Assembly (NCBI GenBank): GCA_964579435.1
Contig: CAZOGI010000010.1
Span: forward strand, 23,583 to 87,582
DNA from: an uncultured Planctomycetales bacterium
GTDB lineage: Bacteria; Omnitrophota; Gorgyraeia; Gygaellales; Profunditerraquicolaceae
Reading direction: 5' to 3'
DNA length: 64,000 nt
The stretch's first letter is position 1. The number at the start of each line of letters is the position of its first letter. Both the position numbers and the translations under genes were made by a program. Under the pieces are notes generated by a model. The model was not told the origin of the DNA, searched no databases, and worked only from the letters and a program-made list of their open reading frames with translations. This document shows, one piece after another, positions 10,749 through 63,846 of the stretch.

Positions 10749-10753
10749 ATACC

Positions 10754-11458
10754 GTGAACGCGCCGCCGCAGATCAGCGCTGTCGTCATGGCCTACAACGA
10801 GGCTGGGTCCCTGCGCAGCGTCGTCGAAGAGATCGGCAGGGAATTGCAGGGGCTCTCGCGTCCCTGCGAGATCATCATCGTAAACGACGGCTCGACCGAC
10901 GGGTCCGCGCAAGCGGCAGAGGAGCTCGCCCGGGCCAACCCGTCGGTAAGCGTGATACATCATCCGGCCAACCGCGGGTTAGGGGGGGTGTACGCGACCG
11001 GATTCGCCAAGGCGCGCGGCGACTACATCACCTTTTTCCCCGCGGACGGCCAATTCCCCGCCTCGATCATCAAACGCTTCTTGTGCCGCATGGACGATGC
11101 GGACCTGATCCTGGGATACATCCCCGAACGCAAAAGCCCCGTCCTGGGGATACTTCTGTCGGCATGCGAAAAACTGCTCTACCGCTGCCTTTTCGGCCCG
11201 GTCCCGCGGCTCCAGGGGATATTCATGGTGCGCCGCTCGATACTCCGGGAGCTGAACCTGCAGAGCGACCCCGCGCGGGGATGGGGGATCGTCATGGAGC
11301 TGATCATCAGGGCCCACCGCGCACGAATGCGGATCGCGCACGAATCAACCACCATGCGCCCCCGTTCCTGCGGCTCCTCGAAAGTGAACAACATACGGAC
11401 TGCAGCGGCTAATTTCAAACAGCTCCTGCGGCTCTTCTTCATCCTCAGACGCCGATGA
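10754..11458 (+). CDS. Glycosyltransferase family 2 (DPM1/ArnC-like polyprenyl-phosphate sugar synthase type)
   Basis: ISAVVMAYNEAGSL...CEIIIVNDGSTDGS. GTG start at 10754 (alternative ATG 10787). About 230 aa, the size of lipid-linked sugar synthases. Confidence 0.7.
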   Translation: MNAPPQISAVVMAYNEAGSLRSVVEEIGRELQGLSRPCEIIIVNDGSTDGSAQAAEELARANPSVSVIHHPANRGLGGVYATGFAKARGDYITFFPADGQFPASIIKRFLCRMDDADLILGYIPERKSPVLGILLSACEKLLYRCLFGPVPRLQGIFMVRRSILRELNLQSDPARGWGIVMELIIRAHRARMRIAHESTTMRPRSCGSSKVNNIRTAAANFKQLLRLFFILRRR

Positions 11459-16528: not shown

Positions 16529-16532
16529 CACC

Positions 16533-21676: not shown

Positions 21677-21680
21677 CCTT

Positions 21681-44705: not shown

Positions 44706-46093
44706 CCGGACAAACAATCCTCCTGGTCAATCCCGGTCACCGCGAATGGGCGCGTGTGCTGCCGCTGGGCATCGCCTACGTTGCCGCTGCCGCCCGGAAA
44801 GCGGGATTCCCGGTGCGCACGATCGACGCAACCGCCGAACGACTTTCACCGCAGGCGCTGGCCCTGCGATTGAAAAAACTCAAACCTGCGGTCCTGGGGA
44901 TCACCGCGACCACGGTGCAGATCGCCTCTGCCTGGGAGATCGCCCGCCTGGCAAAAGAGCATGATCCCGGCTGCGTCACGGTGCTGGGAGGAGTCCACCC
45001 CAGCGCGCTGCCCGAGGAGAGCCTGGGACAGCCGTCTGTTGATTTCGTCTGCAGGGGAGAGGGAGAAGCAACTTTCGTTTCTTTACTCAGCGCCCTTTCC
45101 TCCCGCACTCACCCAGGGTCGGTCCAGGGGATATCCTTCCGCTCAAACGGCTCTGTCGTGCACACGCCGGACCGCCGGCTCGTTCCCGATCCGGACCTCT
45201 TCGCGTTTCCGGCGCGGGAGCTCTTTGACTTCCCCCGCCGGTACCAAAGCCCCCTTGCCCTGCGAAGAAGATGCGCGACGATCCTGACCAGCAGGGGCTG
45301 CCCGGGCACCTGCACCTTCTGCAACAAAAATATCTCCGGAAGCGTCTTTAGGCCGCGCAGCCCCGCCTCGGTCATCGAAGAGATGGAATCGCTCATCCGC
45401 ACCTTCGGCATCCAGGAATTCCATATTGCCGACGACTGTTTCAGCTGGGACATGCAGCGGGTCATGGACCTCTGCGCGCTGATGCGCAAACGCATCCCCG
45501 CCATCCGCTGGGCCTGCACCAACGGCATCCGCGTCGACCGCTCGACCAAACCGTTCTTTCGCGAAATGAAAGCCGCCGGCTGTTACCGCGTCTCCTTCGG
45601 CGTCGAATCGGGAGACGAGGCGCTGCTGAAGCGCATCGGCAAGAATATAGACCAGGAATCGATACGCAGGGCCGTCTCGCTTGCCCAAAGCGCAGGACTC
45701 GTCACCATCTGCTTTTTTATGCTCGGCAATCACGGCGAGACTGCCGCTCACGCTCAAAAAACCATCGAATTCGCCCGCTCTCTGCGCACCGATTACGCCC
45801 AGTTCACGCTGGCCATGCCCTATCCGGGAACCGCATTTTTCAGGCAGCTGGAGAAAGAAGGCCGGATCCGCAGCCGCGATTGGAGGAGGTATTCGGTGTA
45901 CGGGCCGGACATTCCCTACGAGCCGGCCGGGATGAGCGCAGAGGAATTGCTGGGCTTCTACAGACAGGCGTACCGCGCCTTTTATCTGCGGCCACGGCAG
46001 ATCGCCTTTCTCCTTTCCCGGCGGCTGCGCCTCGGCGCCGGCATCGGCAGCTTCGTACGCTCATCAGCGGAGGTCTTGCGCCGTGCCCGATAA
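44702..46093 (+). CDS. B12-binding domain radical SAM protein (class B rSAM) 3
   Basis: MTGQTILLVNPG N-terminus. TSRGCPGTCTFC motif. ATGA overlap with gene 2. Confidence 0.8.
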   Translation: MTGQTILLVNPGHREWARVLPLGIAYVAAAARKAGFPVRTIDATAERLSPQALALRLKKLKPAVLGITATTVQIASAWEIARLAKEHDPGCVTVLGGVHPSALPEESLGQPSVDFVCRGEGEATFVSLLSALSSRTHPGSVQGISFRSNGSVVHTPDRRLVPDPDLFAFPARELFDFPRRYQSPLALRRRCATILTSRGCPGTCTFCNKNISGSVFRPRSPASVIEEMESLIRTFGIQEFHIADDCFSWDMQRVMDLCALMRKRIPAIRWACTNGIRVDRSTKPFFREMKAAGCYRVSFGVESGDEALLKRIGKNIDQESIRRAVSLAQSAGLVTICFFMLGNHGETAAHAQKTIEFARSLRTDYAQFTLAMPYPGTAFFRQLEKEGRIRSRDWRRYSVYGPDIPYEPAGMSAEELLGFYRQAYRAFYLRPRQIAFLLSRRLRLGAGIGSFVRSSAEVLRRAR

Positions 46094-49704: not shown

Positions 49705-49808
49705 TGAGGAGTGAGGAGTTAGGAGTTTGGAGTTTGGAGCTATGCTTTTAGTTCGTATTTTCTCCCAACTCCTAACTCCCTACCCCCAACTCCCTACTCC
49801 CAACTCCC
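49704..49808. repeat. Inverted arrays of heptamer repeats forming a long imperfect hairpin
   Basis: Left arm (GTGAGGA)2 GTTAGGA (GTTTGGA)2 at 49704-49739. Right arm (TCCCAAC/TCCTAAC/TCCCTAC)x6 at 49763-49808. The arms are mutually complementary with a roughly 23-nt loop. Lies immediately after the stop at 49702-49704. Confidence 0.7.
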
Positions 49809-49950
49809 GAATCACCTTGCCGCCTAAAATGAGCGATGGCATACTTTATAATAGGTAAGAAGATCGGCAACAAAAACCATGACACCAGAGACAAGAAAAC
49901 AAAAAAGAAAGTGACTCTTGAGAATAAAATAATATAATAATAGTTAAGCC
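49809..49950. promoter_or_regulatory. AT-rich promoter/leader region of the giant gene
   Basis: About 65-70% AT in a 63% GC background. TTTATAATAGG -10-like element. AT-rich tract TAAAATAATATAATAATAGTTAAGCC directly before ATG 49951. Confidence 0.45.
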
Positions 49951-52900
49951 ATGAAGAGCTTACCGACAAAGAAATTTTTCCGCACTTTTCTCATCCTGGG
50001 GATAACGACGCTCCTGTGCGCAACCCCGCATGCCCTTGCCGCAACCCGTTTCTATTTCGACGCCTCAACCGCAGCAGATGTCACTGCCTCCTATGACGCC
50101 GGCTGGGAATACCAATCCGAGGCAGGCCGCTACAAACTCAACAGGACCAAAGGCTCCTCCGCAATAACCATCGGCACCCAGATCGGCCCCTGGACCGCCG
50201 GCAGCGCCAACCAGGCCCTTGACCGCCAGTACATAAGCGATCCGATCGAAGCCCAGACCATAAGCGGCACGGTCAAAGGCCAGGTCATGTCGCGTGAATA
50301 CAACACCAGCGATAACGTGAACCGGATGTACATCACGGTCAAAGTCGTCTCCAACGACGGTTCCAGCGTGCGGGGGACACTCCTTGCCCTCAATACCTAT
50401 TACACGAATGCCGAACTGATCAGCAACGTAACCCACCGCAACGCCATCCTTGCCAATTCCGACACCGTCACCAACGTCACCGCGCAGCAGGGCGACCGCA
50501 TCCTCATCGAGATCGGCTTCGGCAGCTCGACAACCCAGACCACGCCCGAAGGCTCCTGCAAATGGGGGGAGAATGCATCCGACCTCCCGGAAAACGAAAC
50601 CCAAACAACCGACGGTGCGGGGTGGTTTGAGTTCTCCGCGGATATCACTTTCTATACTCCGCCCAAACCGCAATTCACCCAGAAAGCCTACCAGTGGGAG
50701 AATGACGATTCAACCTCAGGCGTCAACGCCAATTCACAGGCAGCCGAAGACAATACCGCCCTTACCGACGTGCGCATCGGACAGCGCCTCACCTGCAGGA
50801 TGCAGGTCGAGAACGACTCAACCGCCGCATCGAGCGACACCGTCTATCAGCTGCAGTGGGAGAACAACACCGATAACCCCGGGCGCTGGTTCCCGGTCGG
50901 CTACGGGACGCAGATCTCGTACGCAACCGGGCTCGCCGGCTTAAGCGGCGCCTCAACCGGCACCACCGCGCTCTGCGGAACCCCCACGTACACCATGGTC
51001 GCCGGCACCTGGCAGTCAGGGACGAGCCAGAACCCGCCCCACTCCATGGAGACGCAGCGAAGCGCGGAATTCTCTTTTGTCATCGACACCGCCAACGCAA
51101 AAGAAAATAAAGTCTATCGCCTGCGCCTCTTCGACAAAACAAACGCCCAGGCTTTCAATGCCTACACCGTCTATCCGCAGCTGACCACCGTCACCGCCGC
51201 CAACAACACCCTGCGCTACAGCAAAGAGCCACTCGATGCGGTGCAGAACACCTGGCGCATGGCCTCCTATCTGGACGAAACCGGCTATGACAACAGCGCC
51301 TCGGATAACTCGGTTTACGATTCGCTCCCCGCCCGGCGGCTTGCCCTTCGTGCGCAAGCCGACCTGACCTTTACCTCATTCGATGTTTCGCAATACCCGA
51401 CCTCGCAGATGGCCGTAGGCGTGGGAGACTTCAACAACGACGGCTACAACGACCTGCTCATGGGCGGCCAGCGCTACGCGACCTATGTCGGCCGGGCATA
51501 CCTTTATCTCGGCGGCAGCCCGATGGACAGCGTCTGTGACCTCACCATGCAGGCCGGTGCCCTCTACACCAATTCTTATTTCGGCTCCGCGGTCGCGGTC
51601 GGAGATATCAACAACGACAGTTTCGACGACGCCGTGGTCGGCAACTGGGGGTATTACCGTATGTACCTCTACTACGGCTCCACGACCATGAACAACGTCA
51701 TCGACATGACCTTTACCGGCGAAGCGACGAGCGACTACTACGGCTATTCGATCGGCATCAACGACGTCAACGGCGACAGCTTCAAGGATATCGTCACCAA
51801 CGCCCAGTGGTGGAATAACGGCCAGGGAAGACTCTACGTCTATTACGGCGGCACCACGATGAACAATGTTTGTGACCTGACGATAAACGGACAGGGAGGG
51901 GTGCACAACTATCCCGGGTTCGCCTGCGTCGTCGAAGACGTCAACAACGACAGTTTTGCCGACATACTCGTCAGCTCTCCCTACTACTACTATTCGGACA
52001 TGCGCGGCAGGGCATGGCTCTGGTACGGCGGAAACCCGATGGATGCCACCTGCGACAAGACCTTTACCGGAGAGACAACGGGCTCCTATTTCGGCGCTTC
52101 GGGATTATCGATCGGCGAAGTCAATAACGACGGCTTTAAGGACATCCTTATCGGAGCCTACGTCTACAGCTCCACGAAGGGCCGATCGTATCTTTTTTAT
52201 GGAGCGACCGGCACGAGCATGGATATAACCGCTGACAAAACCATCACCGGGAACGCGGGAGACTATCAGGGACAGGGAGAGCAGATCGTCGACGTCAATA
52301 ACGACGACTACGCTGACCTGGTCATCGGCGCCGATGCCTTCGGCAACAGCAGGGGAGTGGTCAAGATTTACTACGGCGGCGCCGACATGGACATCGTCGA
52401 AGACCTCAGCATCGCCACGGGCCAGACAGGCAACTATTTTTCCCAATCGGTCAATACGGGCGACCTGAACAACGACGGGGCCGCTGACCTGATCATCGGA
52501 GCCAACAGCTATCCGAGCCTCACCTACCAGGGCCGCGCCTGGGTTTATTACACCAAACCCCTCTTTGCCCCAACCCAGATCTTCGCCAAAAAGAACACCA
52601 ACAACACCGATTACATCGCCTTTGCCTGGAAAGGCAAAACCGACATGGCCGCAACTTCCGACAACATCATCGTCGAGGCTGCCCAGCAGACGGCGATGGA
52701 TGGCACTAACGACGAGACATTCACCGGAGAAGCGGGGAGCAATTTTTTCAGCAACTGTATCGCGCTTGCCGATTTCAACAACGACCATTACCAGGACCTG
52801 GTGCTGGGCGCCGACGGCTACAACAGCAACCAGGGCCGCGCCTATCTCTACTACGGCGGCACCGGCATAGTCGACACCGCCGCGGCACTTACGTTTAATT

Positions 52901-55900
52901 GTCCGGACACCGGCACCAATTATTTTGCGGGAGGCGGCTGGACCGTATCAACCGGGGACGTAAACGGGGACCTTTATGCCGACCTGCTCCTGGGGGCCGT
53001 CGGCTATAACACGAACATGGGCCGGGCTTTCCTGTACTTAAGCAAGCGCTTCGGCCTCATGGACGGCAGCCCTGACCTGACGCTCACCAGCCCGGCGACC
53101 GGCACAAACTCTTTCGGCAGGAACGCCGTCGGAGACGTCAACGGCGACGGTTTTGCCGATATGCTTATCGGTGCGCCCAGCTACGACACCAATAGGGGCC
53201 GGGTATACCTCTACTACGGCGCCTCAACTCCCGACGCCACTGCTGACCTGGTCCTCGCCGGCGAGACAACCGGAACCTATTTCGGCGACCGGATTGCGGT
53301 CAGTGACGTGAACGGCGATTATTTCTCGGACGTGCTGGTTATGGCTTATGCCTATGCCTCGACCCGCGGCAGGGCATACCTCTATTACGGCGGCACGACC
53401 ATGGATGCCACCTGTGACAAGACCTTTACCGGAGAAGCATCAAACACCAATTTCGGCCGCAGCGGCGGCATCGGCGATATCGATAACGACGGCTACGGCG
53501 ACGTCGTCATCGGGGCCAACCTGTACGCAACAAGCAGCGGCCGCGCCTATCTGTTCTGGGGCGCCACCAACATGGATGTCACCTGCGACAAAACCTTCAC
53601 CGGCGAAACAGCAAGCATACAGTTCGGCCAGGATGTCAGCATTTCCGACCTCAACGCCGACTCCTACGGGGATCTGGTCGTCACCGCCTACACCTGGAAC
53701 ACCAGCCAGGGCCGCGCCTATGTCTACAAAGGCGCCAGCCAGGCCTCCTTTGATACGACCTGTGACCTCACCTTAAGCGGCCTCACCACTACCGACAACT
53801 ACGGACGGGCCGCCCGCTCAGGCGATGTCAACAACGACGGATTCGCCGACCTGGTCGTCGGCGCCTACAATTACAACAGCGGACGCGGCCGGGCGTACCT
53901 CTATTACGGCGATACCGTCTCCTGGGTGACCCAGGCAACCGAAAGTTCCCTGGCAGCAGACACCCCCGGATGGATATACGCGTTCATCGATACCGACCCG
54001 AACCTCTATTACACGCCGGATAACTGGACGTATTGGCGGGTCTATCAGGCTCCGGGACAAGATACCAAAATTCTGGATATCGATTACGTGCAGTTCGACT
54101 TCCAGGCAACGGCGGTCAAGCTCATCTCTTTCTGGGCATTCGGCAAGGACGAAGAGGTCCAGGTCAGATGGGAAACCGCCTCTGAATCGCAGAACCTGGG
54201 CTTCAACCTCTACCGCTCGACATCCTCCGACGGAACTTACACCAAGATAAACGCAGGGATCATCTCCGGCCTCGGCAGCTCGCTGACCGGCAAAGAATAC
54301 TCCTTTACCGACGCCGATGTCTCAAACGGCCGCACCTACTACTACAAGCTGGAATCGATCGAGTTCACCGGCACCCGCGTCATGCACGGCCCCATCGAAG
54401 CGCATCCCGGGCTCGATGCCGACTCAGACGGCATGAGCGACGACTGGGAGGCGCATTACGGGCTCAACAGCGCTGACGCCTCGGACGCAGGGGCAGACCG
54501 CGACAGCGACGGACTGACGAATCTGCAGGAATACACCCTGGGCACCGACCCGACCCGCTCGGGCCAGGTAAGCGCAGGCGCAAGCGGCAGCGGCGGGCTC
54601 ACCGTCGTCTCCAGCGACTCAACCGGCATCACCCTGGAACTGCGCACCCCCGGGATCGAAAGCCGCACCGTCACCGTCAACAAACAAGCGTATCAATCCC
54701 TGAGCATCCCTGCCTATGCGCACGGCTATACGGCCATAAGCGCAAGCGCGCGCATGCCGGTCAAGCCGGTGATGCTTGCCCTGCCGCCCAATGCCGGCTG
54801 TTCCGTAGAAATCCTCAGCGAAGAGACGGAGATCTTCAGTAATTATACGGTAGAGCCGGTTACCACCTACACCCTGGAAGCGGATGCCAACGAAGAAGCG
54901 CTGCAATCGGGAGGCTTCGGCAAAACAGGACCGCTCGAGATAACGGTCGATCCGGCCGCGATCAACACCGTCTTCTATCAGCAGGACAGCAGCTATCCCG
55001 GGGAGCGCGCCGAGGTCGAATGGGTGGGAGATCTGCGCTCTCAGCGTATCGCCTGCCTGCGCCTGGCGCCGCTGCGCTTCAACCCGGCAAAGAAGGAGCT
55101 GACGATCTCCAAAGTCCTGCGCGTGCGGGTCACCTTTACCCAGGGAGGCGCTGCATCGGGAAACTGGCAGCTCTCCGAAACGGCCAAAAACGCGCGCATC
55201 AAGATCAAAACCGAAGGAGGCGGCATCCGCCGGCTTACCTGGACCGACCTGTATAACGCCGGCCTCACCGACGTGATCTGGTCCGACCCGCGACTCCTTT
55301 CCATGACCAACCTCGGCACGGAAATCGCTATCCGCGTCAAAGGCGAAGAGGACGGGATCTTCAATTTCGACGATTACGTGGAATTTTACGCCCGGGAAAT
55401 ACCGGCGCATTACGATGGATCGAGCCCCTACGCCGCGTATGCAAAATACTCTCCCCACAATGTTTACTTTTTGGGCTTTGGATCCTCCAACGGCAAACGC
55501 ATGGAGACGCGCGAAAGCAGCGCCAATGAAGGAAGCGTCTCGCCCGCGCGCTTCCGCCACACCGCCACCTTCGAGCAGAACGATTTTTACTGGAGCACCC
55601 GGGCGGGAGGGGAGCACGCAGACCGCTGGTTCTGGTCGCCTGCCCTCTGGGAAGACACGAGCCAGGAATACGCGCTGAACCTGCCCCATGTCGATGTCGA
55701 CAGCGCCGCCGAGACGGCAAGCGTCTCTTTGGTGTACTACCCGCTCCTGTACCTGCCGCAGCCCAGCGAAACCGCCAAAGCGACCGTCGCCCACGAAACA
55801 AGCGCAACCCTCAACGGCGTCTCCCTCGGCAGTGACACCTGGCAGGGCATGCAGGAACGCACCATCGAGGCGGAAATCGCACACGCCAGCCTTATTACCG

Positions 55901-57924
55901 GAAGCAACACCCTCAAGCTCGCGCACAAGAAAGTATCGCCTGCCGAGCACGACGCTCTTATCGCCAATTATTGCACGATCACCTACTGGCACACATTTGA
56001 GGCGGATTCGGACGCGCTCTCCTTCTCCTGCGCGAGCGAAACAGGGGACACCGCCGCATTCACGGTCACCGGCCTGACGACCCAGGAATGCTCTGCTTAC
56101 GATATTACCGATCCTGCCCAGCCGGTCGCCTTTTCCGGGCTCTCCGCGGTTTTCGACCCCGGAACCAACACCTACTGCGTTTCCTTCAAAGACGATATCC
56201 CGGCGGCGCAGGAGCGCCGTTATCTGGTGCTGGCCGACGCGCAAAAGACAGCCCCCGCGGCCCTTTCCTTCGTTGCCGCGCCGGCGCTTGACCTGAGCCT
56301 CGCCGGCAACCACGCCGATTACCTGATCATCACTCATTCCTCTTTTTCGGACGCCCTGGAGCCCCTCAAAAACCTGCACACCGCCCAGGCACTCGACGTG
56401 CAGATCATCGACATCGAAGATATCTATAACGCCTTCGCGTACGGGTTCCCGACGCCGCAGGCGGTCAAGGACTTCGTCAGCTACGCCTACGCGAACTGGA
56501 AAGGGCTCTGCCAAAAAACCTCGCCGCCCCGGGTCATGGCCCCGACGTACGTGCTCCTCGTCGGAGACGCCCACTACGATTACCGCGACAATCTCGGGAC
56601 CGGGCGCAGCATCTATGTGCCGACCTACCTCATTGCGGATCAACCCAATATCGGCGAGACCGCATCCGACAACTGGTTCGCCTGCATGGGGGGACAGGAG
56701 GATACCCTTGCGGATCTCTTTATCGGAAGGCTGCCGGTCAGGACAAACCAGGAGTGCCAGGCGGTAGTCTCCAAAACAATCGCCTACGCGGCACAGGAGG
56801 CCGGGGGAGCGTATACGCGGGCAACCTTCCTGGCCGATGTCGGCAGCGAATTCGAGCAGACCTGCGAGAGCCTCTCCGGCAAACTCTCCGCCGAAGTAAC
56901 CGGGCAAAAACTCTATTTGTCGGACTACCCCAGCGCCGCCTCGTTCGTCTCCGGACTCATCTCCTCCGTCAACAGCGGGACGCTCCTCTTGACCTATGTC
57001 GGCCACGCCGCAACCTATCTCTGGACCGCCGACGGCTCATTCGACACCGACTCCGTCGCCTCTCTGAACAACACCGCCGCCTTCCCGCTGGTCGTTTCCC
57101 TCGACTGCCTCGACGGCTACTTTATCAACCCCCAGGAACAGTACGAATCCCTCGCCGAGACCTTCCTGCGCAAATCCGGCTCCGGCGCCGTCGCCTGTTT
57201 CTCGCCCTCGGGCATGGGCATGCCGTCAAGCCATCTCATACTCGGCACCTATTTCTATAAAGCGCTCTTTGAGAGCGGCTCAACCCATCTGGGACAGGCG
57301 GCAACCGAAGCAAAACTCAATTATTTCGCCAGCACCGGCGCCGCCGGGCTGGACTTGGTGCATACCTATAACCTCTTGGGGGACCCGGCGCTCGCCCTGA
57401 AGATCCCGGCCGCTGCGTCCCAGACCGGCCAGACCGCCGTGACGACGACTGCCGCCGCGACAACTCAAACCGCAACAGAATCGGAATCCGCAACGACAAC
57501 GAGCGCGGAAACAGACGCCTTTACCTCGATCCTCGGCTCGGCGCTGGCCAACGTTGAAGAAGGCAAGAAATGGCGCGACGAAACCAAACAGGCCAAAGAC
57601 CCCCAGGACCCGGCAGAAACATCCGCGGAACCGCAGGGCGTCCTCGCGAAACTGCCGATCCCCAGGATCATCAAAGAGATCGTCAAGAAACAGAAGACGG
57701 CGCTGACGCAGCCAGCCGGCCAACCCGCGGCAACCGGTCTCACCCATGCGGATACCGCGCCGGAGGGAAGCGAATACGCTCAAGACGCAACAGTCCCGGA
57801 GCGTTCATCCGCCGTGCAGCAGAAATCCCCGCGCACGAATATCCTGCGCACCGTCATCGAAACAGTCTGGAAAGCTGTAGTCACCTTCTTCAAAAAACTC
57901 CTGGCCCTGATCCTGGGTAAATGA
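49951..57924 (+). CDS. Giant secreted multidomain protein: signal peptide, N-terminal beta-sandwich region, 14 FG-GAP (integrin-alpha-type) repeats, Asp-rich Ca-binding motif, peptidase C25 (gingipain-like) domain, Thr-rich linker, basic amphipathic C-terminus
   Basis: MKSLPTKKFFRTFLILGITTLLCATPHALA signal peptide. 14 copies of the [GD]D[VI]N[NG]D[GS][FY]xD[LV][LV][IV]G...GRAYLYYGG periodicity. DADSDGMSDDW...DRDSDGLTNLQEY TSP3-like motif. C25-like block HADYLIITHSSF...LDVQIIDIEDIYN...YVLLVGDAHYDY...TYVGHAATYLW...VSLDCLDGYF with His and Cys about 34 residues apart. Confidence 0.8.
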   Translation: MKSLPTKKFFRTFLILGITTLLCATPHALAATRFYFDASTAADVTASYDAGWEYQSEAGRYKLNRTKGSSAITIGTQIGPWTAGSANQALDRQYISDPIEAQTISGTVKGQVMSREYNTSDNVNRMYITVKVVSNDGSSVRGTLLALNTYYTNAELISNVTHRNAILANSDTVTNVTAQQGDRILIEIGFGSSTTQTTPEGSCKWGENASDLPENETQTTDGAGWFEFSADITFYTPPKPQFTQKAYQWENDDSTSGVNANSQAAEDNTALTDVRIGQRLTCRMQVENDSTAASSDTVYQLQWENNTDNPGRWFPVGYGTQISYATGLAGLSGASTGTTALCGTPTYTMVAGTWQSGTSQNPPHSMETQRSAEFSFVIDTANAKENKVYRLRLFDKTNAQAFNAYTVYPQLTTVTAANNTLRYSKEPLDAVQNTWRMASYLDETGYDNSASDNSVYDSLPARRLALRAQADLTFTSFDVSQYPTSQMAVGVGDFNNDGYNDLLMGGQRYATYVGRAYLYLGGSPMDSVCDLTMQAGALYTNSYFGSAVAVGDINNDSFDDAVVGNWGYYRMYLYYGSTTMNNVIDMTFTGEATSDYYGYSIGINDVNGDSFKDIVTNAQWWNNGQGRLYVYYGGTTMNNVCDLTINGQGGVHNYPGFACVVEDVNNDSFADILVSSPYYYYSDMRGRAWLWYGGNPMDATCDKTFTGETTGSYFGASGLSIGEVNNDGFKDILIGAYVYSSTKGRSYLFYGATGTSMDITADKTITGNAGDYQGQGEQIVDVNNDDYADLVIGADAFGNSRGVVKIYYGGADMDIVEDLSIATGQTGNYFSQSVNTGDLNNDGAADLIIGANSYPSLTYQGRAWVYYTKPLFAPTQIFAKKNTNNTDYIAFAWKGKTDMAATSDNIIVEAAQQTAMDGTNDETFTGEAGSNFFSNCIALADFNNDHYQDLVLGADGYNSNQGRAYLYYGGTGIVDTAAALTFNCPDTGTNYFAGGGWTVSTGDVNGDLYADLLLGAVGYNTNMGRAFLYLSKRFGLMDGSPDLTLTSPATGTNSFGRNAVGDVNGDGFADMLIGAPSYDTNRGRVYLYYGASTPDATADLVLAGETTGTYFGDRIAVSDVNGDYFSDVLVMAYAYASTRGRAYLYYGGTTMDATCDKTFTGEASNTNFGRSGGIGDIDNDGYGDVVIGANLYATSSGRAYLFWGATNMDVTCDKTFTGETASIQFGQDVSISDLNADSYGDLVVTAYTWNTSQGRAYVYKGASQASFDTTCDLTLSGLTTTDNYGRAARSGDVNNDGFADLVVGAYNYNSGRGRAYLYYGDTVSWVTQATESSLAADTPGWIYAFIDTDPNLYYTPDNWTYWRVYQAPGQDTKILDIDYVQFDFQATAVKLISFWAFGKDEEVQVRWETASESQNLGFNLYRSTSSDGTYTKINAGIISGLGSSLTGKEYSFTDADVSNGRTYYYKLESIEFTGTRVMHGPIEAHPGLDADSDGMSDDWEAHYGLNSADASDAGADRDSDGLTNLQEYTLGTDPTRSGQVSAGASGSGGLTVVSSDSTGITLELRTPGIESRTVTVNKQAYQSLSIPAYAHGYTAISASARMPVKPVMLALPPNAGCSVEILSEETEIFSNYTVEPVTTYTLEADANEEALQSGGFGKTGPLEITVDPAAINTVFYQQDSSYPGERAEVEWVGDLRSQRIACLRLAPLRFNPAKKELTISKVLRVRVTFTQGGAASGNWQLSETAKNARIKIKTEGGGIRRLTWTDLYNAGLTDVIWSDPRLLSMTNLGTEIAIRVKGEEDGIFNFDDYVEFYAREIPAHYDGSSPYAAYAKYSPHNVYFLGFGSSNGKRMETRESSANEGSVSPARFRHTATFEQNDFYWSTRAGGEHADRWFWSPALWEDTSQEYALNLPHVDVDSAAETASVSLVYYPLLYLPQPSETAKATVAHETSATLNGVSLGSDTWQGMQERTIEAEIAHASLITGSNTLKLAHKKVSPAEHDALIANYCTITYWHTFEADSDALSFSCASETGDTAAFTVTGLTTQECSAYDITDPAQPVAFSGLSAVFDPGTNTYCVSFKDDIPAAQERRYLVLADAQKTAPAALSFVAAPALDLSLAGNHADYLIITHSSFSDALEPLKNLHTAQALDVQIIDIEDIYNAFAYGFPTPQAVKDFVSYAYANWKGLCQKTSPPRVMAPTYVLLVGDAHYDYRDNLGTGRSIYVPTYLIADQPNIGETASDNWFACMGGQEDTLADLFIGRLPVRTNQECQAVVSKTIAYAAQEAGGAYTRATFLADVGSEFEQTCESLSGKLSAEVTGQKLYLSDYPSAASFVSGLISSVNSGTLLLTYVGHAATYLWTADGSFDTDSVASLNNTAAFPLVVSLDCLDGYFINPQEQYESLAETFLRKSGSGAVACFSPSGMGMPSSHLILGTYFYKALFESGSTHLGQAATEAKLNYFASTGAAGLDLVHTYNLLGDPALALKIPAAASQTGQTAVTTTAAATTQTATESESATTTSAETDAFTSILGSALANVEEGKKWRDETKQAKDPQDPAETSAEPQGVLAKLPIPRIIKEIVKKQKTALTQPAGQPAATGLTHADTAPEGSEYAQDATVPERSSAVQQKSPRTNILRTVIETVWKAVVTFFKKLLALILGK

Positions 57925-58745
57925 CAACCCGTCTTTTTTGCATCGAAATAGCCGATTATCCCTTCGGCATAGAAGCGCCCGAACCCCTCTGGGGCGCATT
58001 TCAGGAAACCTATCTGCCGTTCCTGAGCGCCCGGGAGCCGCGCTACCGCATCCGCGCCGAGATCGACCCCACCGCGCAACCCGTTGACCTCTGGGAGGGG
58101 ATGACCCTGGATAAGACGACGCTCTCGATCAGCGATGACACCTCGAGTGCGCGTTTCGATTTCAAGACAAAAGAAGGGACGATCCGCCTGAACCCCGCCA
58201 GACTCCTGGTGCCGTTGGGCGCCTTCCTGCGCAATATCGTCACTGTGCTCTTGAGCCTCCAGGATGACGGCCTCCTGATGCATGCCTGCGGGGTCCTGTA
58301 CGAAGAGGAAGCATTCCTCTTCACCGGGCGTTCCGGCGCCGGAAAAACGACGGTATCGCGCGCGCTCGCCCATTTGCCGACGATCTCCGACGATCTTTTG
58401 CTGGTCAAGCCCACCCCCGGAGGATTCGGCGTCTGGCCGCACCCGCGCTGGGGAGACCGCCAGAGCGGATCATTCCAAAACCGGCCGCACCGGATCAGCA
58501 GTATTTACCTCTTGTGCCAGGATACCGGGGTTTTCGTGAAAAGGCTCGGCCCGGCCCGGGCCACCGCGCACCTCTTGACCGTTCCGCACGTCCCCGTCAA
58601 CCGCATCCCCGCCGCGCGCATCCTGGAAAGCACCCAACGCCTGGCGGAGACGGTCCCGGTGTACGAACTGCACTTCCGGCCCGACCCGTCGTTCTGGGAA
58701 AAGATACTGCAGGAGAGAGAAAGGATTGTCGCTGCATGGAAATGA
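57921..58745 (+). CDS. HPr-kinase-related P-loop protein (HprK C-terminal-domain-like)
   Basis: FTGRSGAGKTTVSRAL P-loop in an HprK-like context. ATG 57921 overlaps the giant gene stop at 57922-57924. Confidence 0.6.
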   Translation: MTTRLFCIEIADYPFGIEAPEPLWGAFQETYLPFLSAREPRYRIRAEIDPTAQPVDLWEGMTLDKTTLSISDDTSSARFDFKTKEGTIRLNPARLLVPLGAFLRNIVTVLLSLQDDGLLMHACGVLYEEEAFLFTGRSGAGKTTVSRALAHLPTISDDLLLVKPTPGGFGVWPHPRWGDRQSGSFQNRPHRISSIYLLCQDTGVFVKRLGPARATAHLLTVPHVPVNRIPAARILESTQRLAETVPVYELHFRPDPSFWEKILQERERIVAAWK

Positions 58746-59017
58746 AATCAGCAATCCCGTTCAAGAACGAGAAGACCGCTTCCCGCATCATCCAGGACCA
58801 GGCCGTGATCGTCATCCTGGAAAACCAGGAGACGGTGGTCCTCAACGAGAGCGCCTCGCGCATCTGGGAACTAAGCGACGGGAAACGCACGCTCGGGGAA
58901 ATCGCCCGCATACTGGAAGAGGAATTTTCGGTATCCGCGCAAACCGCCCTGCAGGACGCCGCCGCCTTCCTGGGCGAAGCGGAAGGCAAGGGGATCTTTT
59001 CACTCAACCGCCCATGA
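58736..59017 (+). CDS. PqqD-family protein (RiPP recognition element-like peptide chaperone)
   Basis: 93 aa. QAVIVILENQETVVLNESASRIWELSDGKRTLGEIARIL is a typical PqqD/RRE fold signature. Confidence 0.7.
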   Translation: MEMKSAIPFKNEKTASRIIQDQAVIVILENQETVVLNESASRIWELSDGKRTLGEIARILEEEFSVSAQTALQDAAAFLGEAEGKGIFSLNRP

Positions 59018-60036
59018 CCCCGACCGGCTTCACCGATATCTTTGCGCACAGCATGCGGCAGAACCTCTGCCTGATCGCGCACCTGGAGCTCACCCACGCC
59101 TGCAACCTGCGCTGCCGGCACTGTTACTGCGTCCCCGACGCGGACCGGCCGGAGTGCTCGTTCGGGGAAATCCGCTCGGTCCTGCGGCAGCTCAAAGAAG
59201 CGGGAACGCTCTTTTTGTGCCTCAGCGGAGGCGAACTGCTCTGCAGAGCGGACATCTTCGAGATACTCTCCTGCGCGCGCGCCGAAGGGTTCGCCCTGCG
59301 CCTGATGACCAACGGCACGCTCATCGACGAAACGGCAGCCGCGCGCATCGCAGCCGCAGCCGCGGTTACGGTCGACATGAGCATCTACGCGGCAAATCCC
59401 CGGCTGCACGACGCGGTGACGGGAAAACCCGGATCGTTGCACCTGACCCTGCAGGCAGCAGCGCTCCTGAGGGAACGGGGGATACGCGTCGTGTTCAAGT
59501 TCATCGTCATGAAAGACACCGTCGGGGAATTCAAAAACATCCGCGCGCTCTGCCAAGAGAGAGGGATCGATTTCATCTACGACGTCTGCCTGGTCGAGCG
59601 CACCGACGGCGACGCCCGGCCGCTGCAGTACCGCCTGGACAAAGAAGGAATCAAATCGTTCCTGCGCCGGAACGCGCTGTCTCCCGCGGCATCGCCCGAC
59701 GGGTCGGTTTTGTGCACCGCCGGACTCAACAACATCTTCATCTCTCCGCAGCTGGACGTCTATCCCTGCATCGGCATCCGTGAAAAGATCGGCTCCCTGC
59801 GCCAAGGTTCCCTGAAGGACATCTGGGAATCCGCGCCGCTGCTGCGGAGGCTGCGCACCCTCACCGATGCCGAACTGAACGCCTGCTCTTCCTGCGCGAA
59901 GCGCGCCTACTGCTTCCGCTGCGCCGGCCTGGCGCTGGAAGCGTCAAACGACCTCTGCGCCCGCTCGCCGTTCGACTGCGAAGTTGCCCAGGCGCTCGCG
60001 GAAACCGCACAAAGAGAAAAGGAGACCGTCCTATGA
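59014..60036 (+). CDS. Radical SAM / SPASM domain peptide-maturase-like protein
   Basis: CNLRCRHCY CxxxCxxC. C-terminal SPASM cysteines (VLCTAG...VYPC...CSSCAKRAYCFRCAG). ATGA overlap with the PqqD stop. Confidence 0.8.
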   Translation: MTPTGFTDIFAHSMRQNLCLIAHLELTHACNLRCRHCYCVPDADRPECSFGEIRSVLRQLKEAGTLFLCLSGGELLCRADIFEILSCARAEGFALRLMTNGTLIDETAAARIAAAAAVTVDMSIYAANPRLHDAVTGKPGSLHLTLQAAALLRERGIRVVFKFIVMKDTVGEFKNIRALCQERGIDFIYDVCLVERTDGDARPLQYRLDKEGIKSFLRRNALSPAASPDGSVLCTAGLNNIFISPQLDVYPCIGIREKIGSLRQGSLKDIWESAPLLRRLRTLTDAELNACSSCAKRAYCFRCAGLALEASNDLCARSPFDCEVAQALAETAQREKETVL

Positions 60037-60194
60037 ACAAGAAAAATCAACCCGCCGCGAAACGACCGTACACCAAACCCGCTATCGCCTTCAGCAAAAA
60101 GATCGAGATCATCTCCGCGGTATGCGATTCCGGCTTCGGCGGACTGAGCAACTGCCGCAAATCATCGACGCCCTGCCTGCGTTCCCGGGCCTAA
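60033..60194 (+). CDS. Unannotated 53-aa Cys-containing small peptide, candidate precursor/substrate peptide
   Basis: ATG 60033 overlaps the rSAM stop (ATGA). AAAGGAGA Shine-Dalgarno sits 10 nt upstream. Product MNKKNQPAAKRPYTKPAIAFSKKIEIISAVCDSGFGGLSNCRKSSTPCLRSRA has a basic N-terminus and a C-terminal core with Cys residues. It is below the 60-aa ORF track cutoff. Confidence 0.35.
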   Translation: MNKKNQPAAKRPYTKPAIAFSKKIEIISAVCDSGFGGLSNCRKSSTPCLRSRA

Positions 60195-60207
60195 GCTCAG
60201 GCGTACC

Positions 60208-61824
60208 GTGGACCGTTCAGACCCCGAGACCGTCTCGCTCTCGCTGGTACGCGACAGCCTCAATGTCCGCGGCGGGACGATCACCCTCACGATCGCCGGA
60301 TCCTGCATGTCGCCGCTGATCCGGGCAGGAGACCGCGTCACCATACGATCGGTTTCTTTCGCTGAACTCACTCCCGGCGACATAATCGCCTTCCAGGACC
60401 GCAACCTGCTCTACGCGCACCGCCTGACCGGCAAAGATCCCCGCACGCAGAATCTGCACACCCAGGCGGACCGGTCATGGCAGACGGACATCGCGTTCTC
60501 CTTTTCCCAGGTGTTGGGAAAAGTGACCGCCGTCTCGAAACAGGGCAGGACCCTGCATCTTGACCGCTTCCCCGGCCGGCAGATCAACCGTGCCTATGGC
60601 GCCTGCCGCCGCCTGCTTCAGGCGATCACGCTCCCCGCGCGAGCGGCGCATGAGGCCCTGCGCCGGAGGCAGGGGACAGAGGAGCGGCAAGCACTCTTTG
60701 CGGTTGTCTCTGTCGCCAGCCGCGGCTTTCTGGAGACCCCGTTCCCGCTGCCGGAGCGCATCGATGAGCCCCTCTTTGGGGAACAGGCGCGCGCCCAAAC
60801 ACTGGCACCCTGGTGCTTTTGCGTACTGCGCGATCGGCAGCGCGACCACGATGTTTTTTCTCCCACTCTGCGCGAAACGCTCAGGCTCGAATATTACGAA
60901 ACCTTTTCCCTGAATGCCCAATCCCTCCCCGGGACACAGGAACTCTTCGCTCACCTGCGCGCCCAGGAGATCGGATTCCTCGTCTTCAAAGGCCTGGTGC
61001 TGGCCCAGGGCGTCTATGCGGATATCGGAGCGCGCCGCCTGGGAGACACCGATATCCTCATCAGAAGGGAGGACCTCTCCCGTCTCGACCGGGTCCTGCG
61101 CGAGAGAGGCTTTCGTTGTCCGGTTCCCCTCACGGCAGTCCCGGAGGCGCCCAACGCGTACCGCAATGCGCTGCTGTATTTGCCTCCCGACGGATCCCTG
61201 CAGAGACCGCTGCATGTGTACTGGCACTGGGTCAATCTCGCCGCGTTTTCCCGGCGCCTCCCCGGGTCGATACGGATGGAACGGATCTGGCAGGACCGCA
61301 TCAAGGTCGACATCGCCGGCATCTGCCTGGAGACGTTCTCCTGGGAACATCACCTCATCTACCTGTCCATGCACGCGCTCGCCCATTCCTATTTCCCGCT
61401 CAGCACCCTTATCGACATCGCCGGGCTGCTGACGAAACGCCGAAAAGACCTCGAGTGGAACGGCATCCTCAAAGACGCCCAGACCTTCGGCCTGGAGCGG
61501 CCGCTCTTGCTTGCCCTCACCCTGGCCCGGGAGATCTGCTCCGCCCCGGTTCCCGCCGCGGCGTTAAGCCGGCTACGGCCAACCCGCCTGAGCTTATTCG
61601 AAAGACGCTTCATCGCAGACGCGCAGCGGTTACGGCTGAAAACGGGAAAAGAGTGGCTCCTTTACCTGGGCATGAACGACACGCCGCTTGAGCGCCTCGA
61701 TTTTATCCTCCGCGCGCTTTTTCCGCCCGCGCACCTTCTTGCCCTCATCCGCCAGCAGCCGCGCGCCGCCCTCGCCGCATCGTACGGGAAACGCCTGGTC
61801 GCGGCAATGCGCAGCGCCTCCTAA
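60208..61824 (+). CDS. S24/S26 (signal-peptidase/LexA-like) peptidase domain fused to an uncharacterised nucleotidyltransferase-family domain
   Basis: N-terminus GSCMSPLIRAGDRVTI...PGDIIAF...YAHRLTGK...QVLGKVTAV parallels SPase I boxes B-E. The C-terminal 350 aa resemble NTP_transf_5-type nucleotidyltransferases (VFKGLVLAQGVYADIGARRLGDTDILIRRED). GTG start at 60208. Confidence 0.5.
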   Translation: MDRSDPETVSLSLVRDSLNVRGGTITLTIAGSCMSPLIRAGDRVTIRSVSFAELTPGDIIAFQDRNLLYAHRLTGKDPRTQNLHTQADRSWQTDIAFSFSQVLGKVTAVSKQGRTLHLDRFPGRQINRAYGACRRLLQAITLPARAAHEALRRRQGTEERQALFAVVSVASRGFLETPFPLPERIDEPLFGEQARAQTLAPWCFCVLRDRQRDHDVFSPTLRETLRLEYYETFSLNAQSLPGTQELFAHLRAQEIGFLVFKGLVLAQGVYADIGARRLGDTDILIRREDLSRLDRVLRERGFRCPVPLTAVPEAPNAYRNALLYLPPDGSLQRPLHVYWHWVNLAAFSRRLPGSIRMERIWQDRIKVDIAGICLETFSWEHHLIYLSMHALAHSYFPLSTLIDIAGLLTKRRKDLEWNGILKDAQTFGLERPLLLALTLAREICSAPVPAAALSRLRPTRLSLFERRFIADAQRLRLKTGKEWLLYLGMNDTPLERLDFILRALFPPAHLLALIRQQPRAALAASYGKRLVAAMRSAS

Positions 61825-61914: not shown

Positions 61915-63846
61915 ATGCCGCAATACGATTTCAACCTTCGCGATTATTTCCGGATCTTCCGCAAACGCAAGCTCGTCATCATCCTGACCTTTCTTCTGGT
62001 TTGTGCCGTCAGCTATGCCTTTCTTTCCACCCAGCCGACCGTCTATCAGGCCGATTGCACCGTCAAGATCGAAGAGCGCAAGACCATCGCCGGGCTCCTG
62101 ACCGAATGGATCATGTACAATCCGGGCGATGTCATGGAATCCCAGACCAAGATCATCCGGGGGTTCCCGATCATGCGCCAGGTCGCCCTGCGCCTGAAGC
62201 TCATCGACCAGAACAGCTCGGAGGATCAGATAAACGAAGCGGTGAACCGGCTCCAGGACCAGGTCGAGACCGAGCGTATCGAGTCGACCAACATGATCAA
62301 GATCAAGACCTCTTCCGCATCGCCCGACGAAGCGATGAACCTGGCCAATACCGTCGCCGAGGTCTATATAGAAGAGAACCTCACCGAAAAAGCCAAACAG
62401 GCACGCCACGTGCGCCAGTTCATCCAGGACCAGCTCTCGGGGCTTGACTCCCGACTCAAGGAATCAGAAGAGAAACTCAAGGAATTCGGGACCGGTACCG
62501 ACGTCAAATTTGCCGCGCCCATCGAACAGAAACTCATCGAGCTGGAATTCCAGCGCGCGGAACTCCTGCAGAAATACACCGAAAAACACCCTCTGGTCAT
62601 CCAGATCCGCGAACAGATCAAAGAGCTCCAGCAACGGGTCAGCGATTACAGCGGCCAGGAGCTGGAGTACGCGCGGCTGACCCGGGAGATCGATGTCAAT
62701 AAGAAGCTCTACGCCATACTCAAGGAAAAGCTCGAAGAGGCGCGCATAACCGAGGCACAGAAGGTCGGCGACATCTCGATCGTCAACCCGGCCTTTTTGC
62801 CGACGACGCCGCTTTCCGGGAACAAACAACTCAAATTTCTCATCGGCGCCTTCCTCGGGCTCCTGCTGGGACTGACCTTCGCCTTCGTGACCGAAACCCT
62901 GGACACCTCCATCGCCACGATCGAGGACGTCGAATCGGTGATCAAGCTGCCGGTCCTGGGGGTCGTGCCTTCCTTCGAATCCGCGGCCCAGGAAGACCGC
63001 AGCATGCTCGACGAAATAAAAGAGCTCTTCCGGGGGAAAAAACGCACGCCGAGCGAAGAAGCCGCGATCCGGCTCATCGCGCACTATAAGCCGCAGTCGC
63101 CGATAACCGAGGCCTACCGCAACATCCATACCAACCTGAAACTGGACCAGAGCAAGAAGACGATCCTCATCACCAGTTCCAACCCGCAGGAAGGCAAGAG
63201 CAGCGTCGTCTGCAACCTGGCCATCGTCATGTCGCAGCTGGGGCTTAAAACCCTGATCATCTCCTCAGACCTGCGCCGTCCCGTGCTCTCCAAAACCTTC
63301 GGGATCCCGCGCGAACCGGGGCTCAGCGAGCTTGCCATGGGTACGGCGACCCTGGACCAGGCCCTCTACAGCATCACCGACATCCTGCTGGGGACCCTCA
63401 AGATCGAAGACATCCAAAAGACCCGCGGCATCGACAATATCTGGATCATCCCCTCGGGGAGCATGGTCACCAACCCCGTGGAGATCATCGAATCCGCCAA
63501 GCTGCAGGAGATCGTCGAGGCCGCCAAGAAACGTTTCGATTTCATCATCTTCGATTCCCCGCCGGTCCTTCCCGTCACCGACGCCAGCCTCCTGGCGCCG
63601 AAAATGGATTGCGTCATCATCGTCTACGAGATCGGCCGCACCAGCCGTGAAGCGCTCCTGCGCACCAAGATCCAGCTGGAAACCGTCGGCGCGCGTATAA
63701 CCGGGATCGTGCTCAACCATACCAAGCCCCAGACCGAAGCCCTGGCGACCTATCCCTACAATTACCGGTACAAATACCGCTACTATGACGAAGAGCACCA
63801 GAAGAAGCAGGGAGGGTTTTTCAAAAAGGCGCGCAAGAGAAGCTAA
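61915..63846 (+). CDS. Polysaccharide chain-length determinant (Wzz/GumC-like) fused to BY-kinase (Wzc/EpsG-type tyrosine autokinase)
   Basis: N-terminal TM plus coiled-coil periplasmic region. Walker A ITSSNPQEGKSSV. Walker B FIIFDSPPVL. C-terminal Tyr cluster YPYNYRYKYRYYDEE. Confidence 0.8.
   Translation: MPQYDFNLRDYFRIFRKRKLVIILTFLLVCAVSYAFLSTQPTVYQADCTVKIEERKTIAGLLTEWIMYNPGDVMESQTKIIRGFPIMRQVALRLKLIDQNSSEDQINEAVNRLQDQVETERIESTNMIKIKTSSASPDEAMNLANTVAEVYIEENLTEKAKQARHVRQFIQDQLSGLDSRLKESEEKLKEFGTGTDVKFAAPIEQKLIELEFQRAELLQKYTEKHPLVIQIREQIKELQQRVSDYSGQELEYARLTREIDVNKKLYAILKEKLEEARITEAQKVGDISIVNPAFLPTTPLSGNKQLKFLIGAFLGLLLGLTFAFVTETLDTSIATIEDVESVIKLPVLGVVPSFESAAQEDRSMLDEIKELFRGKKRTPSEEAAIRLIAHYKPQSPITEAYRNIHTNLKLDQSKKTILITSSNPQEGKSSVVCNLAIVMSQLGLKTLIISSDLRRPVLSKTFGIPREPGLSELAMGTATLDQALYSITDILLGTLKIEDIQKTRGIDNIWIIPSGSMVTNPVEIIESAKLQEIVEAAKKRFDFIIFDSPPVLPVTDASLLAPKMDCVIIVYEIGRTSREALLRTKIQLETVGARITGIVLNHTKPQTEALATYPYNYRYKYRYYDEEHQKKQGGFFKKARKRS

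Follow-up and report, generated by a model that had tools for sequence, protein, structure and literature searches.

A segment of the 64,000-nucleotide (nt) stretch of DNA analysed here (GCA_964579435.1, contig CAZOGI010000010.1, positions 23,583 to 87,582 of the forward strand; hereafter the window, to which all coordinates refer unless a locus is named) carries what is probably a maturation operon of the type known for ribosomally made peptides with post-translational modifications (RiPPs). It appears to be transcribed together with a gene for a giant secreted PorU-like C25 protein, with which the peptide product probably works. The gene identities, the overlapping gene junctions, the conserved gene order, the family of precursor peptides, and the homology of the kinase and PqqD protein to a lasso peptide kinase/chaperone pair were observed directly. 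The preliminary description of the window had proposed a peptide maturation cassette in this region, and our results support that proposal, as the PqqD protein, the radical SAM (rSAM)/SPASM enzyme, the kinase fold and the precursor family hold in profile or fold searches; the gene positions given there were also correct throughout.

Organization of the operon

Seven genes lie on the + strand between 49.9 and 63.8 kb of the window, in the following order: a giant FG-GAP/C25 protein (2657 amino acids (aa); 49951-57924), a kinase (274 aa; 57921-58745), a PqqD-family protein (93 aa; 58736-59017, with an alternative start at 58742), an rSAM/SPASM enzyme (340 aa; 59014-60036), a 53-aa peptide (60033-60194), an S26-like::NTP_transf_5 fusion protein (538 aa, GTG start; 60208-61824) and a Wzz/BY-kinase. 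Four consecutive ATGA stop/start overlaps join the giant gene to the kinase gene (57921-57924), the kinase stop to the PqqD start (58742-58745), the PqqD gene to the rSAM gene (59014-59017), and the rSAM gene to the peptide open reading frame (ORF; 60033-60036). The ATG of this ORF is preceded at a distance of 8 nt by the sequence AAGGAG, and gaps of 13 nt and 90 nt separate the peptide ORF from the fusion gene and the fusion gene from the Wzz/BY-kinase gene, respectively. The coupling of the giant gene to the kinase gene, the succession of overlapping or nearly overlapping cassette genes and the position of the Wzz/BY-kinase gene next to the fusion gene are thus as had been described. The same junctions are present in a relative whose kinase is 90% identical (P0001).

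A scan for promoters and terminators gave no result above chance, and no noteworthy terminator-like site was found inside the operon, the 90-nt gap before the Wzz/BY-kinase gene included. Upstream of the operon, a hairpin at 49715-49785 is located directly 3' of the stop codon (49704) of a TPR protein gene (folding free energy of -42.5 kcal/mol, z -5.3 in comparison with shuffled sequences), and between this hairpin and the giant gene the sequence is AT-rich and contains a promoter-like site (49911-49938). Because of these two elements, the giant gene plausibly opens a transcription unit. The hairpin is long and imperfect and is built of GGAGTT-like repeats; an Rfam search of the window revealed no RNA family.

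The candidate precursor peptide and its family

The 53-aa peptide (MNKKNQPAAKRPYTKPAIAFSKKIEIISAVCDSGFGGLSNCRKSSTPCLRSRA) was assigned as the candidate precursor on the basis of its position, its motif and its translational coupling, and consists of a leader with the motif YxxPxI and a core with three Cys residues. Small ORFs of this kind adjoin ScmC-like kinases in every related locus that was opened, and they have in common a leader motif [KR]xPYx[KA]Px[ILV], a core rich in Cys and Gly, and Ser at the C-terminus. A profile built from eight such peptides retrieved 618 sequence clusters. Among the best 120 of these 618, the YxxP motif is present in all 120, exactly three Cys residues in 112, and a terminal Ser in 115 (Gly-Ser in 109), while four members end in Thr; similarly, 79 of the 83 unique peptides from the related loci end in Ser. 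In the loci scanned, the leader motif occurs once per locus, in a short ORF. Uncultured lineages account for most family members, and the source names include Nitrospirae, Thermodesulfovibrionales, Myxococcota and Chloroflexia. None of the eight family peptides scanned reached an NCBIfam cutoff, Pfam gave no match for the window peptide, and no precomputed Pfam domain was found on the family members listed.

The window peptide resembles this family in position, length, YxxP motif and number of Cys residues, and profiles built without it rank it first, though weakly, among the 953 six-frame ORFs of the window (12.5 bits, E 0.006). It is closest to the Myxococcota subtype, from which it differs in having SGFGG in place of GGFGG, KSSTPC in place of QSSQPTVMC and CLRSRA in place of CLNIGS. 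The small Cys peptide noted in the preliminary description can probably be placed, by its YxxP leader, three Cys residues and position, in a conserved precursor family, of which it appears to be a divergent and atypical member.

Two loci show variations on the precursor gene itself. In L009, a 102-aa precursor (10948-11256, - strand) combines the same YxxP leader with about six repeats of a GG..C unit, adjoins a second pair of rSAM/SPASM and PqqD genes, and matches the ScmA model weakly (18.7 bits, cutoff 35). In L063, two tandem precursor genes precede the kinase gene (430-1014).

Candidate maturation enzymes

The assignments of the PqqD and rSAM/SPASM proteins are above the Pfam thresholds. 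The former, a predicted peptide-binding chaperone (RiPP recognition element, RRE), matches PF05402 with 58.7 bits (7e-16, cutoff 23.4) and stays below the cutoff of every NCBIfam PqqD subfamily (PQQ, GeoRSP, lasso, Scm, HPr-rel-A). The rSAM enzyme matches PF04055 (74.5 bits) and, with a full SPASM domain, PF13186 (35 bits). Its CX3CX2C motif and seven C-terminal SPASM Cys residues, ten in all, are each kept in 98-100% of 53 relatives, and its closest solved relatives are the peptide-modifying enzymes PqqE, SkfB, SuiB and CteB. No NCBIfam equivalog cutoff was reached by this enzyme, and the GeoRSP type suggested for it at the outset is not borne out, the score against TIGR04303 being 94.1 bits at a cutoff of 400.

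The kinase was assigned as a predicted peptide Ser kinase of the ScmC family. Precomputed matches to PF27840 (ScmC) exist for P0001 and for 70 of 73 homologs, and this model was not among the Pfam results of the window kinase. An AlphaFold2 (AF2) model of the kinase has a predicted local distance difference test score (pLDDT) of 88. In a Foldseek search with this model, the 50 best matches shown, among which are all 47 matches at E <= 0.001, are phosphoenolpyruvate carboxykinases (PEPCK) or HPr kinases/phosphorylases (HprK/P), with the exception of rank 39, a chain of a respiratory supercomplex (8iuf_E2). An alignment of 34 members shows that H121, the P-loop GxSGxGK[TS]T (GRSGAGKTT in the window) and D157 are kept, with H121, G136, G139, G141, K142, T144 and D157 invariant or nearly so, which gives a catalytic motif H-x14-GxxGxGK[ST]...D. 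By its modelled fold and this motif, the window kinase can be classified as a P-loop kinase of the HPr kinase/PEPCK fold. The earlier assignment as HprK-like holds for fold and catalytic motif; it does not extend to the equivalogs HprK-related kinase A (TIGR04352, 15.8 bits) and B (TIGR04355, 18.7 bits; cutoff 200) or ScmC, whose cutoffs are far from being reached.

A biochemically characterized relative of this kinase is BsfK of a Bradymonas lasso peptide cluster, the sequence of which was published together with those of the precursor BsfA and the chaperone BsfB1 (PMC10368454) and was compared here with the window family. BsfK, an HPr-kinase-like protein with the key residues H-G-G-G-K-S-D-D, phosphorylates Ser3 of the BsfA core; the leader of BsfA carries the motif YxxPxL, and the PqqD chaperone BsfB1 strongly stimulates BsfK (PMC10368454). 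As BsfA does not have a C-terminal Ser, the target of BsfK is an internal one (PMC10368454). The motif of the window kinase agrees with that of the lasso kinases in the same work. In profile comparison (hhalign), the kinase profile aligns with BsfK over 222 columns (98.3%, E 1.7e-14), BsfK scores 62.7 bits against the kinase profile in hmmsearch, and BLASTP gives 39% over the P-loop region; these scores indicate that the kinase family is homologous to the lasso-precursor Ser kinase BsfK. The window PqqD protein is 31% identical to BsfB1 over 62 aa, and BsfB1 scores 74.5 bits against the cassette PqqD profile. BsfA scores 15 bits against the peptide profile, in the leader motif only.

Linkage of the cassette to a giant C25 protein

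Ninety-two related loci (designated by L numbers) were collected by look-ups of kinase and peptide homologs, one scan of a genome collection and one metagenome scan, and were scored with profiles of the cassette proteins; in the genome collection, the search by kinase alignment relied on a generic P-loop pattern and gave one locus only. The recurrence of the gene set in these 92 loci is more than chance, and the comparison of neighbourhoods across genomes that was proposed in the preliminary description thus recovers the cassette. The canonical order is the giant C25 protein, PqqD, rSAM, peptide, kinase and a standalone S26-like protein of 160-175 aa. A C25 match is present in 34 of the 40 loci in which sequence extends past the 5' end of the cassette; counted by distinct peptide variants the fraction is 33/39, and 29/31 among the metagenome-scan loci alone. 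As judged from stop-to-stop frames, the end of C25 is often no more than 4 nt away from PqqD. The link of the cassette with a giant C25 protein, first noted in the window, is thus a conserved one. The S26-like gene was found in 33 of 42 loci with room 3' of the kinase gene, and an NTP_transf_5 domain in seven loci.

Several loci depart from this order. Those of the Myxococcota type (L003, L010) are located within polysaccharide loci and have the nucleotidyltransferase and no C25 protein; L004 has an FG-GAP giant without a C25 domain, and L092 is arranged likewise, its large upstream ORF being unannotated. L008 has, besides the peptide and the kinase, only a giant protein of another kind. L006 (Chloroflexia; 9426-17942) encodes the kinase, a C25 protein of 1051 aa, a PqqD protein and a peptide that ends in GS and has no Cys; an rSAM enzyme is missing. 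The kinase and the C-terminal Ser are kept together in all variants, including L006 and L008, which have no rSAM enzyme. The gene order of the window is itself rearranged in comparison with 80 or more loci: its kinase gene is the first of the cassette, while in the canonical order it is the fourth after the giant gene.

The window giant, defined by its ORF and Pfam matches, begins with a Sec signal peptide (aa 1-30), which was read directly from the sequence. It contains FG-GAP repeats at approximately aa 490-1400 (nt 51418-54150; 12 stretches, 261 bits), a Propeptide_C25 domain at aa 1551-1732 (nt 54601-55146; 64 bits) and a PorU-like Peptidase_C25 domain at aa 2124-2483 (nt 56320-57399; 262 bits), and ends with a Thr/Ala-rich tail of 174 aa, the C-terminus of which is hydrophobic (nt 57400-57921). 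The Peptidase_C25 and FG-GAP assignments made previously are above the Pfam thresholds. The only match of the C25 region among sequences in the PDB is PorU (6za2; E 6e-15 over 404 residues), whose GH..W and Cys positions, corresponding to the catalytic His and Cys, are aligned in the giant. The score of the giant against the NCBIfam PorU model (NF033707) is 273 bits, under the equivalog cutoff of 420. The FG-GAP repeats and the tail distinguish the window giant from its relatives; the giants of the canonical loci end at the C25 domain (GDPALxxx).

This last observation bears on the suggestion, also made in the preliminary description, that a modified protein tail is the product. Modification of the giant tail by the cassette instead of modification of the small peptide seems most improbable: the window giant does have an extra tail and is translationally coupled to the kinase gene, but the leader motif that PqqD could bind is located in the small peptide, and the idea was rejected because the canonical giants are tailless. 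Somewhat less remote, and in our opinion still rather unlikely, is the possibility that the product is a free secreted antimicrobial or signalling peptide, in which case the giant would be no more than a neighbour under shared regulation or, at the utmost, a protease that trims the peptide outside the cell. All enzyme types of the cassette are typical of RiPP clusters, and the cassette is found without C25 in L003, L009, L010 and L090. However, direct adjacency of the C25 and PqqD genes is the usual arrangement, seen with at least 33 distinct peptide variants, and the canonical modules contain neither a transporter nor an immunity gene. We favour a product that works with the C25 protein.

Two further features of the giants were seen. 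In L030, L031, L032, L036 and L037 (1-8562), two large C25 proteins are encoded in tandem before the cassette, and a domain (VEWSTASE...YYYLVEEVD) that the window giant has near aa 1440-1520 is also present in small flanking proteins of L006. An FG-GAP repeat protein, assumed by the authors to be unrelated, lies at the border of the Bradymonas lasso cluster, which includes a kinase and a nucleotidyltransferase (PMC10368454); giant FG-GAP proteins flank the cassette in the window and in L004 as well.

The S26-like::NTP_transf_5 fusion

The fusion protein comprises a candidate S24/S26-like domain of SipW/archaeal type at aa 18-110 (nt 60259-60537) and an NTP_transf_5 domain at aa 188-443 (nt 60769-61536). 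The latter was correctly recognized in the preliminary description, as it matches PF14907 with 138 bits (5e-40) at a cutoff of 31.2, and its nucleotidyltransferase motif LGDTDIL, which conforms to GxxDxD, is conserved with P0080. The S26-like domain aligns with 35 standalone S26-like proteins of related loci, with a His-Arg pair kept, and this alignment supports its assignment to S24/S26. A sequence search of solved structures with the fusion protein gave no meaningful match.

The fusion itself, which had been counted among the features of an uncharacterized system, proved to be common: a word-indexed search for homologs gave one such protein, while an exhaustive search gave many, with the fusion present in 61 of the 150 best homologs. 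In L067, the two are separate genes, with NTP_transf_5 located immediately 3' of the S26-like gene, which explains the fusion of the window. In L003, an uncalled frame 3' of the kinase gene (10675-11412) matches the S26-like profile (E 6e-13), and for this reason the Myxococcota type may also encode an S26-like peptidase.

Proposed pathway

A pathway can be outlined, all steps of which are drawn from homology and conserved gene neighbourhood. After synthesis of the 53-aa peptide, its leader would be bound by the PqqD protein via YxxPxI, and the rSAM/SPASM enzyme would cross-link the three-Cys core in the cytoplasm, most likely with the formation of Cys-derived thioethers. The kinase, aided by the PqqD protein, would then phosphorylate a Ser residue. 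For the wider family, the predicted site is the nearly invariant C-terminal Ser; in the window, an internal Ser is the likely target, since the peptide ends in Ala. The NTP_transf_5 domain may add a sugar or a nucleotide to the phosphate. Both reactions have precedents, as lasso kinases other than BsfK transfer phosphate to the precursor's C-terminal Ser, and in pseudomycoidin a nucleotidyltransferase, an enzyme sometimes fused to the leader protease, adds a hexose to that phosphate (PMC8498205). Leader removal would fall to the S26-like domain, with the cut probably following the small residue of ...ISA|VC. In each of the three subtypes the residue before the core is a small one (LAA|EE, VMA|SF and ISA|VC), and this seems to agree with the specificity of S26-type peptidases. 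Finally, the mature peptide would be a partner, a substrate or a regulator of the C25 surface protein, with which it would act.

A number of observations weigh against this reading. The sample of loci comes mostly from one peptide subtype and contains some near-duplicates. Canonical modules encode no transporter that would bring a cytoplasmic product to the secreted C25 protein, and the likeness of the NTP_transf_5 domain to the lasso nucleotidyltransferase is based on literature descriptions only. The match of the window peptide to leave-one-out profiles is weak (E 0.006 to 0.11), so that its assignment owes as much to position, length, motif and coupling as to similarity. It also departs from the family in not having a C-terminal Ser: it is the only member with an Ala end among the best 120, and its terminus ...CLRSRA (60180-60194) is the only one other than Ser or Thr among the 82 complete peptides in the loci. 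The S26-like domain, for its part, scores below the thresholds, with 16-19 bits against PF00717 (S24 1e-3; cutoff 23.3) and 26.6 bits (4e-6) against TIGR02228 (cutoff 51.85), so that the claim of an S26-type peptidase, unsupported by Pfam and NCBIfam, draws its support from the standalone homologs. At the nucleophile position it has Cys, in GSCMSP (60298-60315, aa 31-36), while 35 of 36 relatives have G[RK]SMxP, and it has TQAD instead of TKGD. Because of the Cys and the TQAD, this domain may work in another way or have no activity. Of the 36 fusion proteins in which the motif can be read, only one other (P0317) has a Cys at this position.

Such features could mean that the window copy is decaying or has been repurposed and that the 53-aa ORF no longer gives the product of the family. 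The terminal Ala, the weak profile match, the substitutions in the S26-like domain and the rearranged gene order would all fit this explanation. Nevertheless, we find it quite unlikely, as all frames are intact, with overlapping junctions that recur in the 90%-identical relative and with a strong ribosome-binding site; the catalytic motifs of the kinase, the rSAM enzyme and the nucleotidyltransferase are intact; the Cys at the nucleophile position is shared with P0317; and BsfK provides a precedent for an internal Ser target.

Relation to known systems

The operon belongs to neither of its closest known systems, the kinase-bearing lasso clusters and the SynChlorMet cassette. With the former (paeninodin, pseudomycoidin, Bradymonas bsf) it shares the YxxPx[LI] leader, the discrete PqqD chaperone and the HPr-kinase-like Ser kinase; in these clusters the C-terminal Ser is the usual site of phosphorylation, and the nucleotidyltransferase is sometimes fused to the leader protease. 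In contrast to them, the operon has no cyclase and no B2 protease of transglutaminase type and instead encodes an rSAM/SPASM enzyme, a Cys-rich core, an S26-like peptidase and a giant C25 protein. Identity with a lasso cluster was rejected, since domain scans revealed neither a cyclase nor a B2 protease among the operon genes; the only asparagine (Asn) synthase of the window (21519-23585) has a full GATase domain and is located 36 kb from the peptide gene. With the SynChlorMet cassette (known in silico, from the NCBIfam/TIGRFAM models ScmA, ScmC, ScmD, ScmE and ScmF) the operon shares a small Cys/Gly peptide, an HprK-like kinase (ScmC), a PqqD-like protein (ScmD) and radical SAM/SPASM enzymes. 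The scores of the window proteins are, however, far below the cutoffs (ScmC 23.8 of 125, ScmD 17.5 of 100, ScmE 100.5 of 400 and ScmF 74.2 of 400 bits), with no match to ScmA. The SynChlorMet cassette has two rSAM enzymes, while the window has one and adds the C25 protein, the S26-like domain and the nucleotidyltransferase.

More distant parallels are found elsewhere. The sactipeptide and ranthipeptide pathways also combine an rSAM/SPASM enzyme with a PqqD-type recognition element acting on a Cys-rich precursor, but there is no equivalog match to them here, and the kinase, nucleotidyltransferase, S26-like peptidase and C25 partner are foreign to them. PorU, the sortase of type IX secretion, shares with the giant the C25 domain, a propeptide-like region and the aligned catalytic His and Cys. 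It differs in that the C25 domain of the window is located near the end of a 2657-aa FG-GAP protein that scores 273 of the 420 bits of the PorU model, and transpeptidase activity of the giant is putative.

In quinohemoprotein amine dehydrogenase, a small cross-linked gamma subunit (QhpC) is matured by a radical SAM/SPASM enzyme (QhpD) before leader removal; the leader is then removed by a serine peptidase (QhpE), and the cross-linked peptide works with a large extracytoplasmic protein, the system having a dedicated exporter and no known kinase. The logic is alike, with no specific sequence relationship to the window proteins. By analogy, the cross-linked peptide might be a built-in subunit of the C25 protein, or its inhibitor, and the tight conservation of the C25 gene and the cassette as neighbours, as well as the three-Cys core accompanied by a SPASM enzyme and a serine-type leader peptidase, would be in line with this. 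We hold it to be improbable, given that similarity to QhpC and QhpD does not go beyond the superfamily, that an exporter is missing, and that nothing in the Qhp system is known to correspond to the kinase or to the invariant C-terminal Ser.

The enzyme types of the operon are familiar from RiPP pathways, but the literature searched has no description of the combination of an rSAM/SPASM enzyme, a predicted PqqD-dependent HPr-kinase-like kinase, an S26-like peptidase, an optional nucleotidyltransferase and a tightly linked giant PorU-like C25 surface protein. The earlier view that the system is uncharacterized is upheld by a literature search, which did not cover subscription journals and found no published description of the peptide family, its S26-like partner or the C25 link. 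The same search found no relevant literature on SynChlorMet, ScmC, HprK-related kinase, NTP_transf_5 or C25 with PqqD, and the RRE survey papers do not mention kinases. The precursor family comprises over 600 sequence clusters, and no model for it is present in the part of Pfam and NCBIfam that was scanned; the pairing of a nearly invariant C-terminal Ser with a peptide kinase makes a directly testable chemical prediction. In view of the C25 link, the modified peptide may be the partner, the substrate or the anchor of a surface protein and not an antibiotic that is set free. If true, this would widen the view of what RiPP machinery is for and would suggest a role for C25 domains outside type IX secretion. 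The locus is of interest to research on both RiPPs and the cell surface, the window copy being an atypical member.

Glycan context and neighbouring genes

The last gene of the series (61915-63846, + strand) encodes a 643-aa protein that combines a Wzz/GNVR chain-length determinant with a BY-kinase (TIGR01007, 162.9 bits at a cutoff of 108; GNVR and Wzz matches). It is not kept beside the cassette in other loci; it is a downstream neighbour from the context of polysaccharide export, and its link to the cassette is putative only. The other approximately 50 kb of the window form a large glycan locus with GT2 and GT4 glycosyltransferases, Wzy_C, DegT, RmlD, AsnB and an initiating transferase. The exopolysaccharide setting described for the cassette is therefore real in the window, and it recurs in L003, L010 and L061, which, like the window, bear the nucleotidyltransferase; canonical loci such as L011 do not have it. 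Since only part of the family shares this context, a link of the cassette to polysaccharide assembly stays speculative.

This setting is pertinent to the most elaborate of the explanations considered here, in which a sortase-like C25 domain cuts a protein and joins its new C-terminus to the N-terminal amine of the matured peptide, while the nucleotidyltransferase couples the phospho-Ser to a glycan. Its enzymatic precedent is PorU, a C25 transpeptidase that links cargo by an amide bond to the amine of Ser or Gly on a glycan (PMC7468200). It is also PorU that is the sole solved sequence relative of the C25 region, with the catalytic His and Cys aligned, and the C25 protein accompanies the cassette in 34 of 40 loci, while the nucleotidyltransferase-bearing loci (the window, L003, L010 and L061) sit among glycan genes. 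Against the scheme, canonical loci such as L011 have the C25 protein without a nucleotidyltransferase or glycan genes, whereas L003 and L010 have the latter two without C25. In addition, no peptide exporter is present, and the PorU equivalog cutoff is not attained. We regard this scheme as unlikely; that a ribosomally made, rSAM-cross-linked peptide should form a covalent bridge between a surface protein and an exopolysaccharide outside the type IX system of Bacteroidota appears more doubtful still.

Other genes of the glycan locus include a DUF6895 protein (40774-41757, - strand) and, upstream of the giant gene, three tandem genes for B12-binding radical SAM proteins (41869-46093, + strand), followed by two GT2 glycosyltransferases and the TPR protein. 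In L090, a B12-binding radical SAM gene is likewise located upstream of the cassette. The Asn synthase of the glycan locus (21519-23585) is a full-length protein of AsnB type, and an Asn synthase is encoded near the cassette in L003 (Myxococcota) too.

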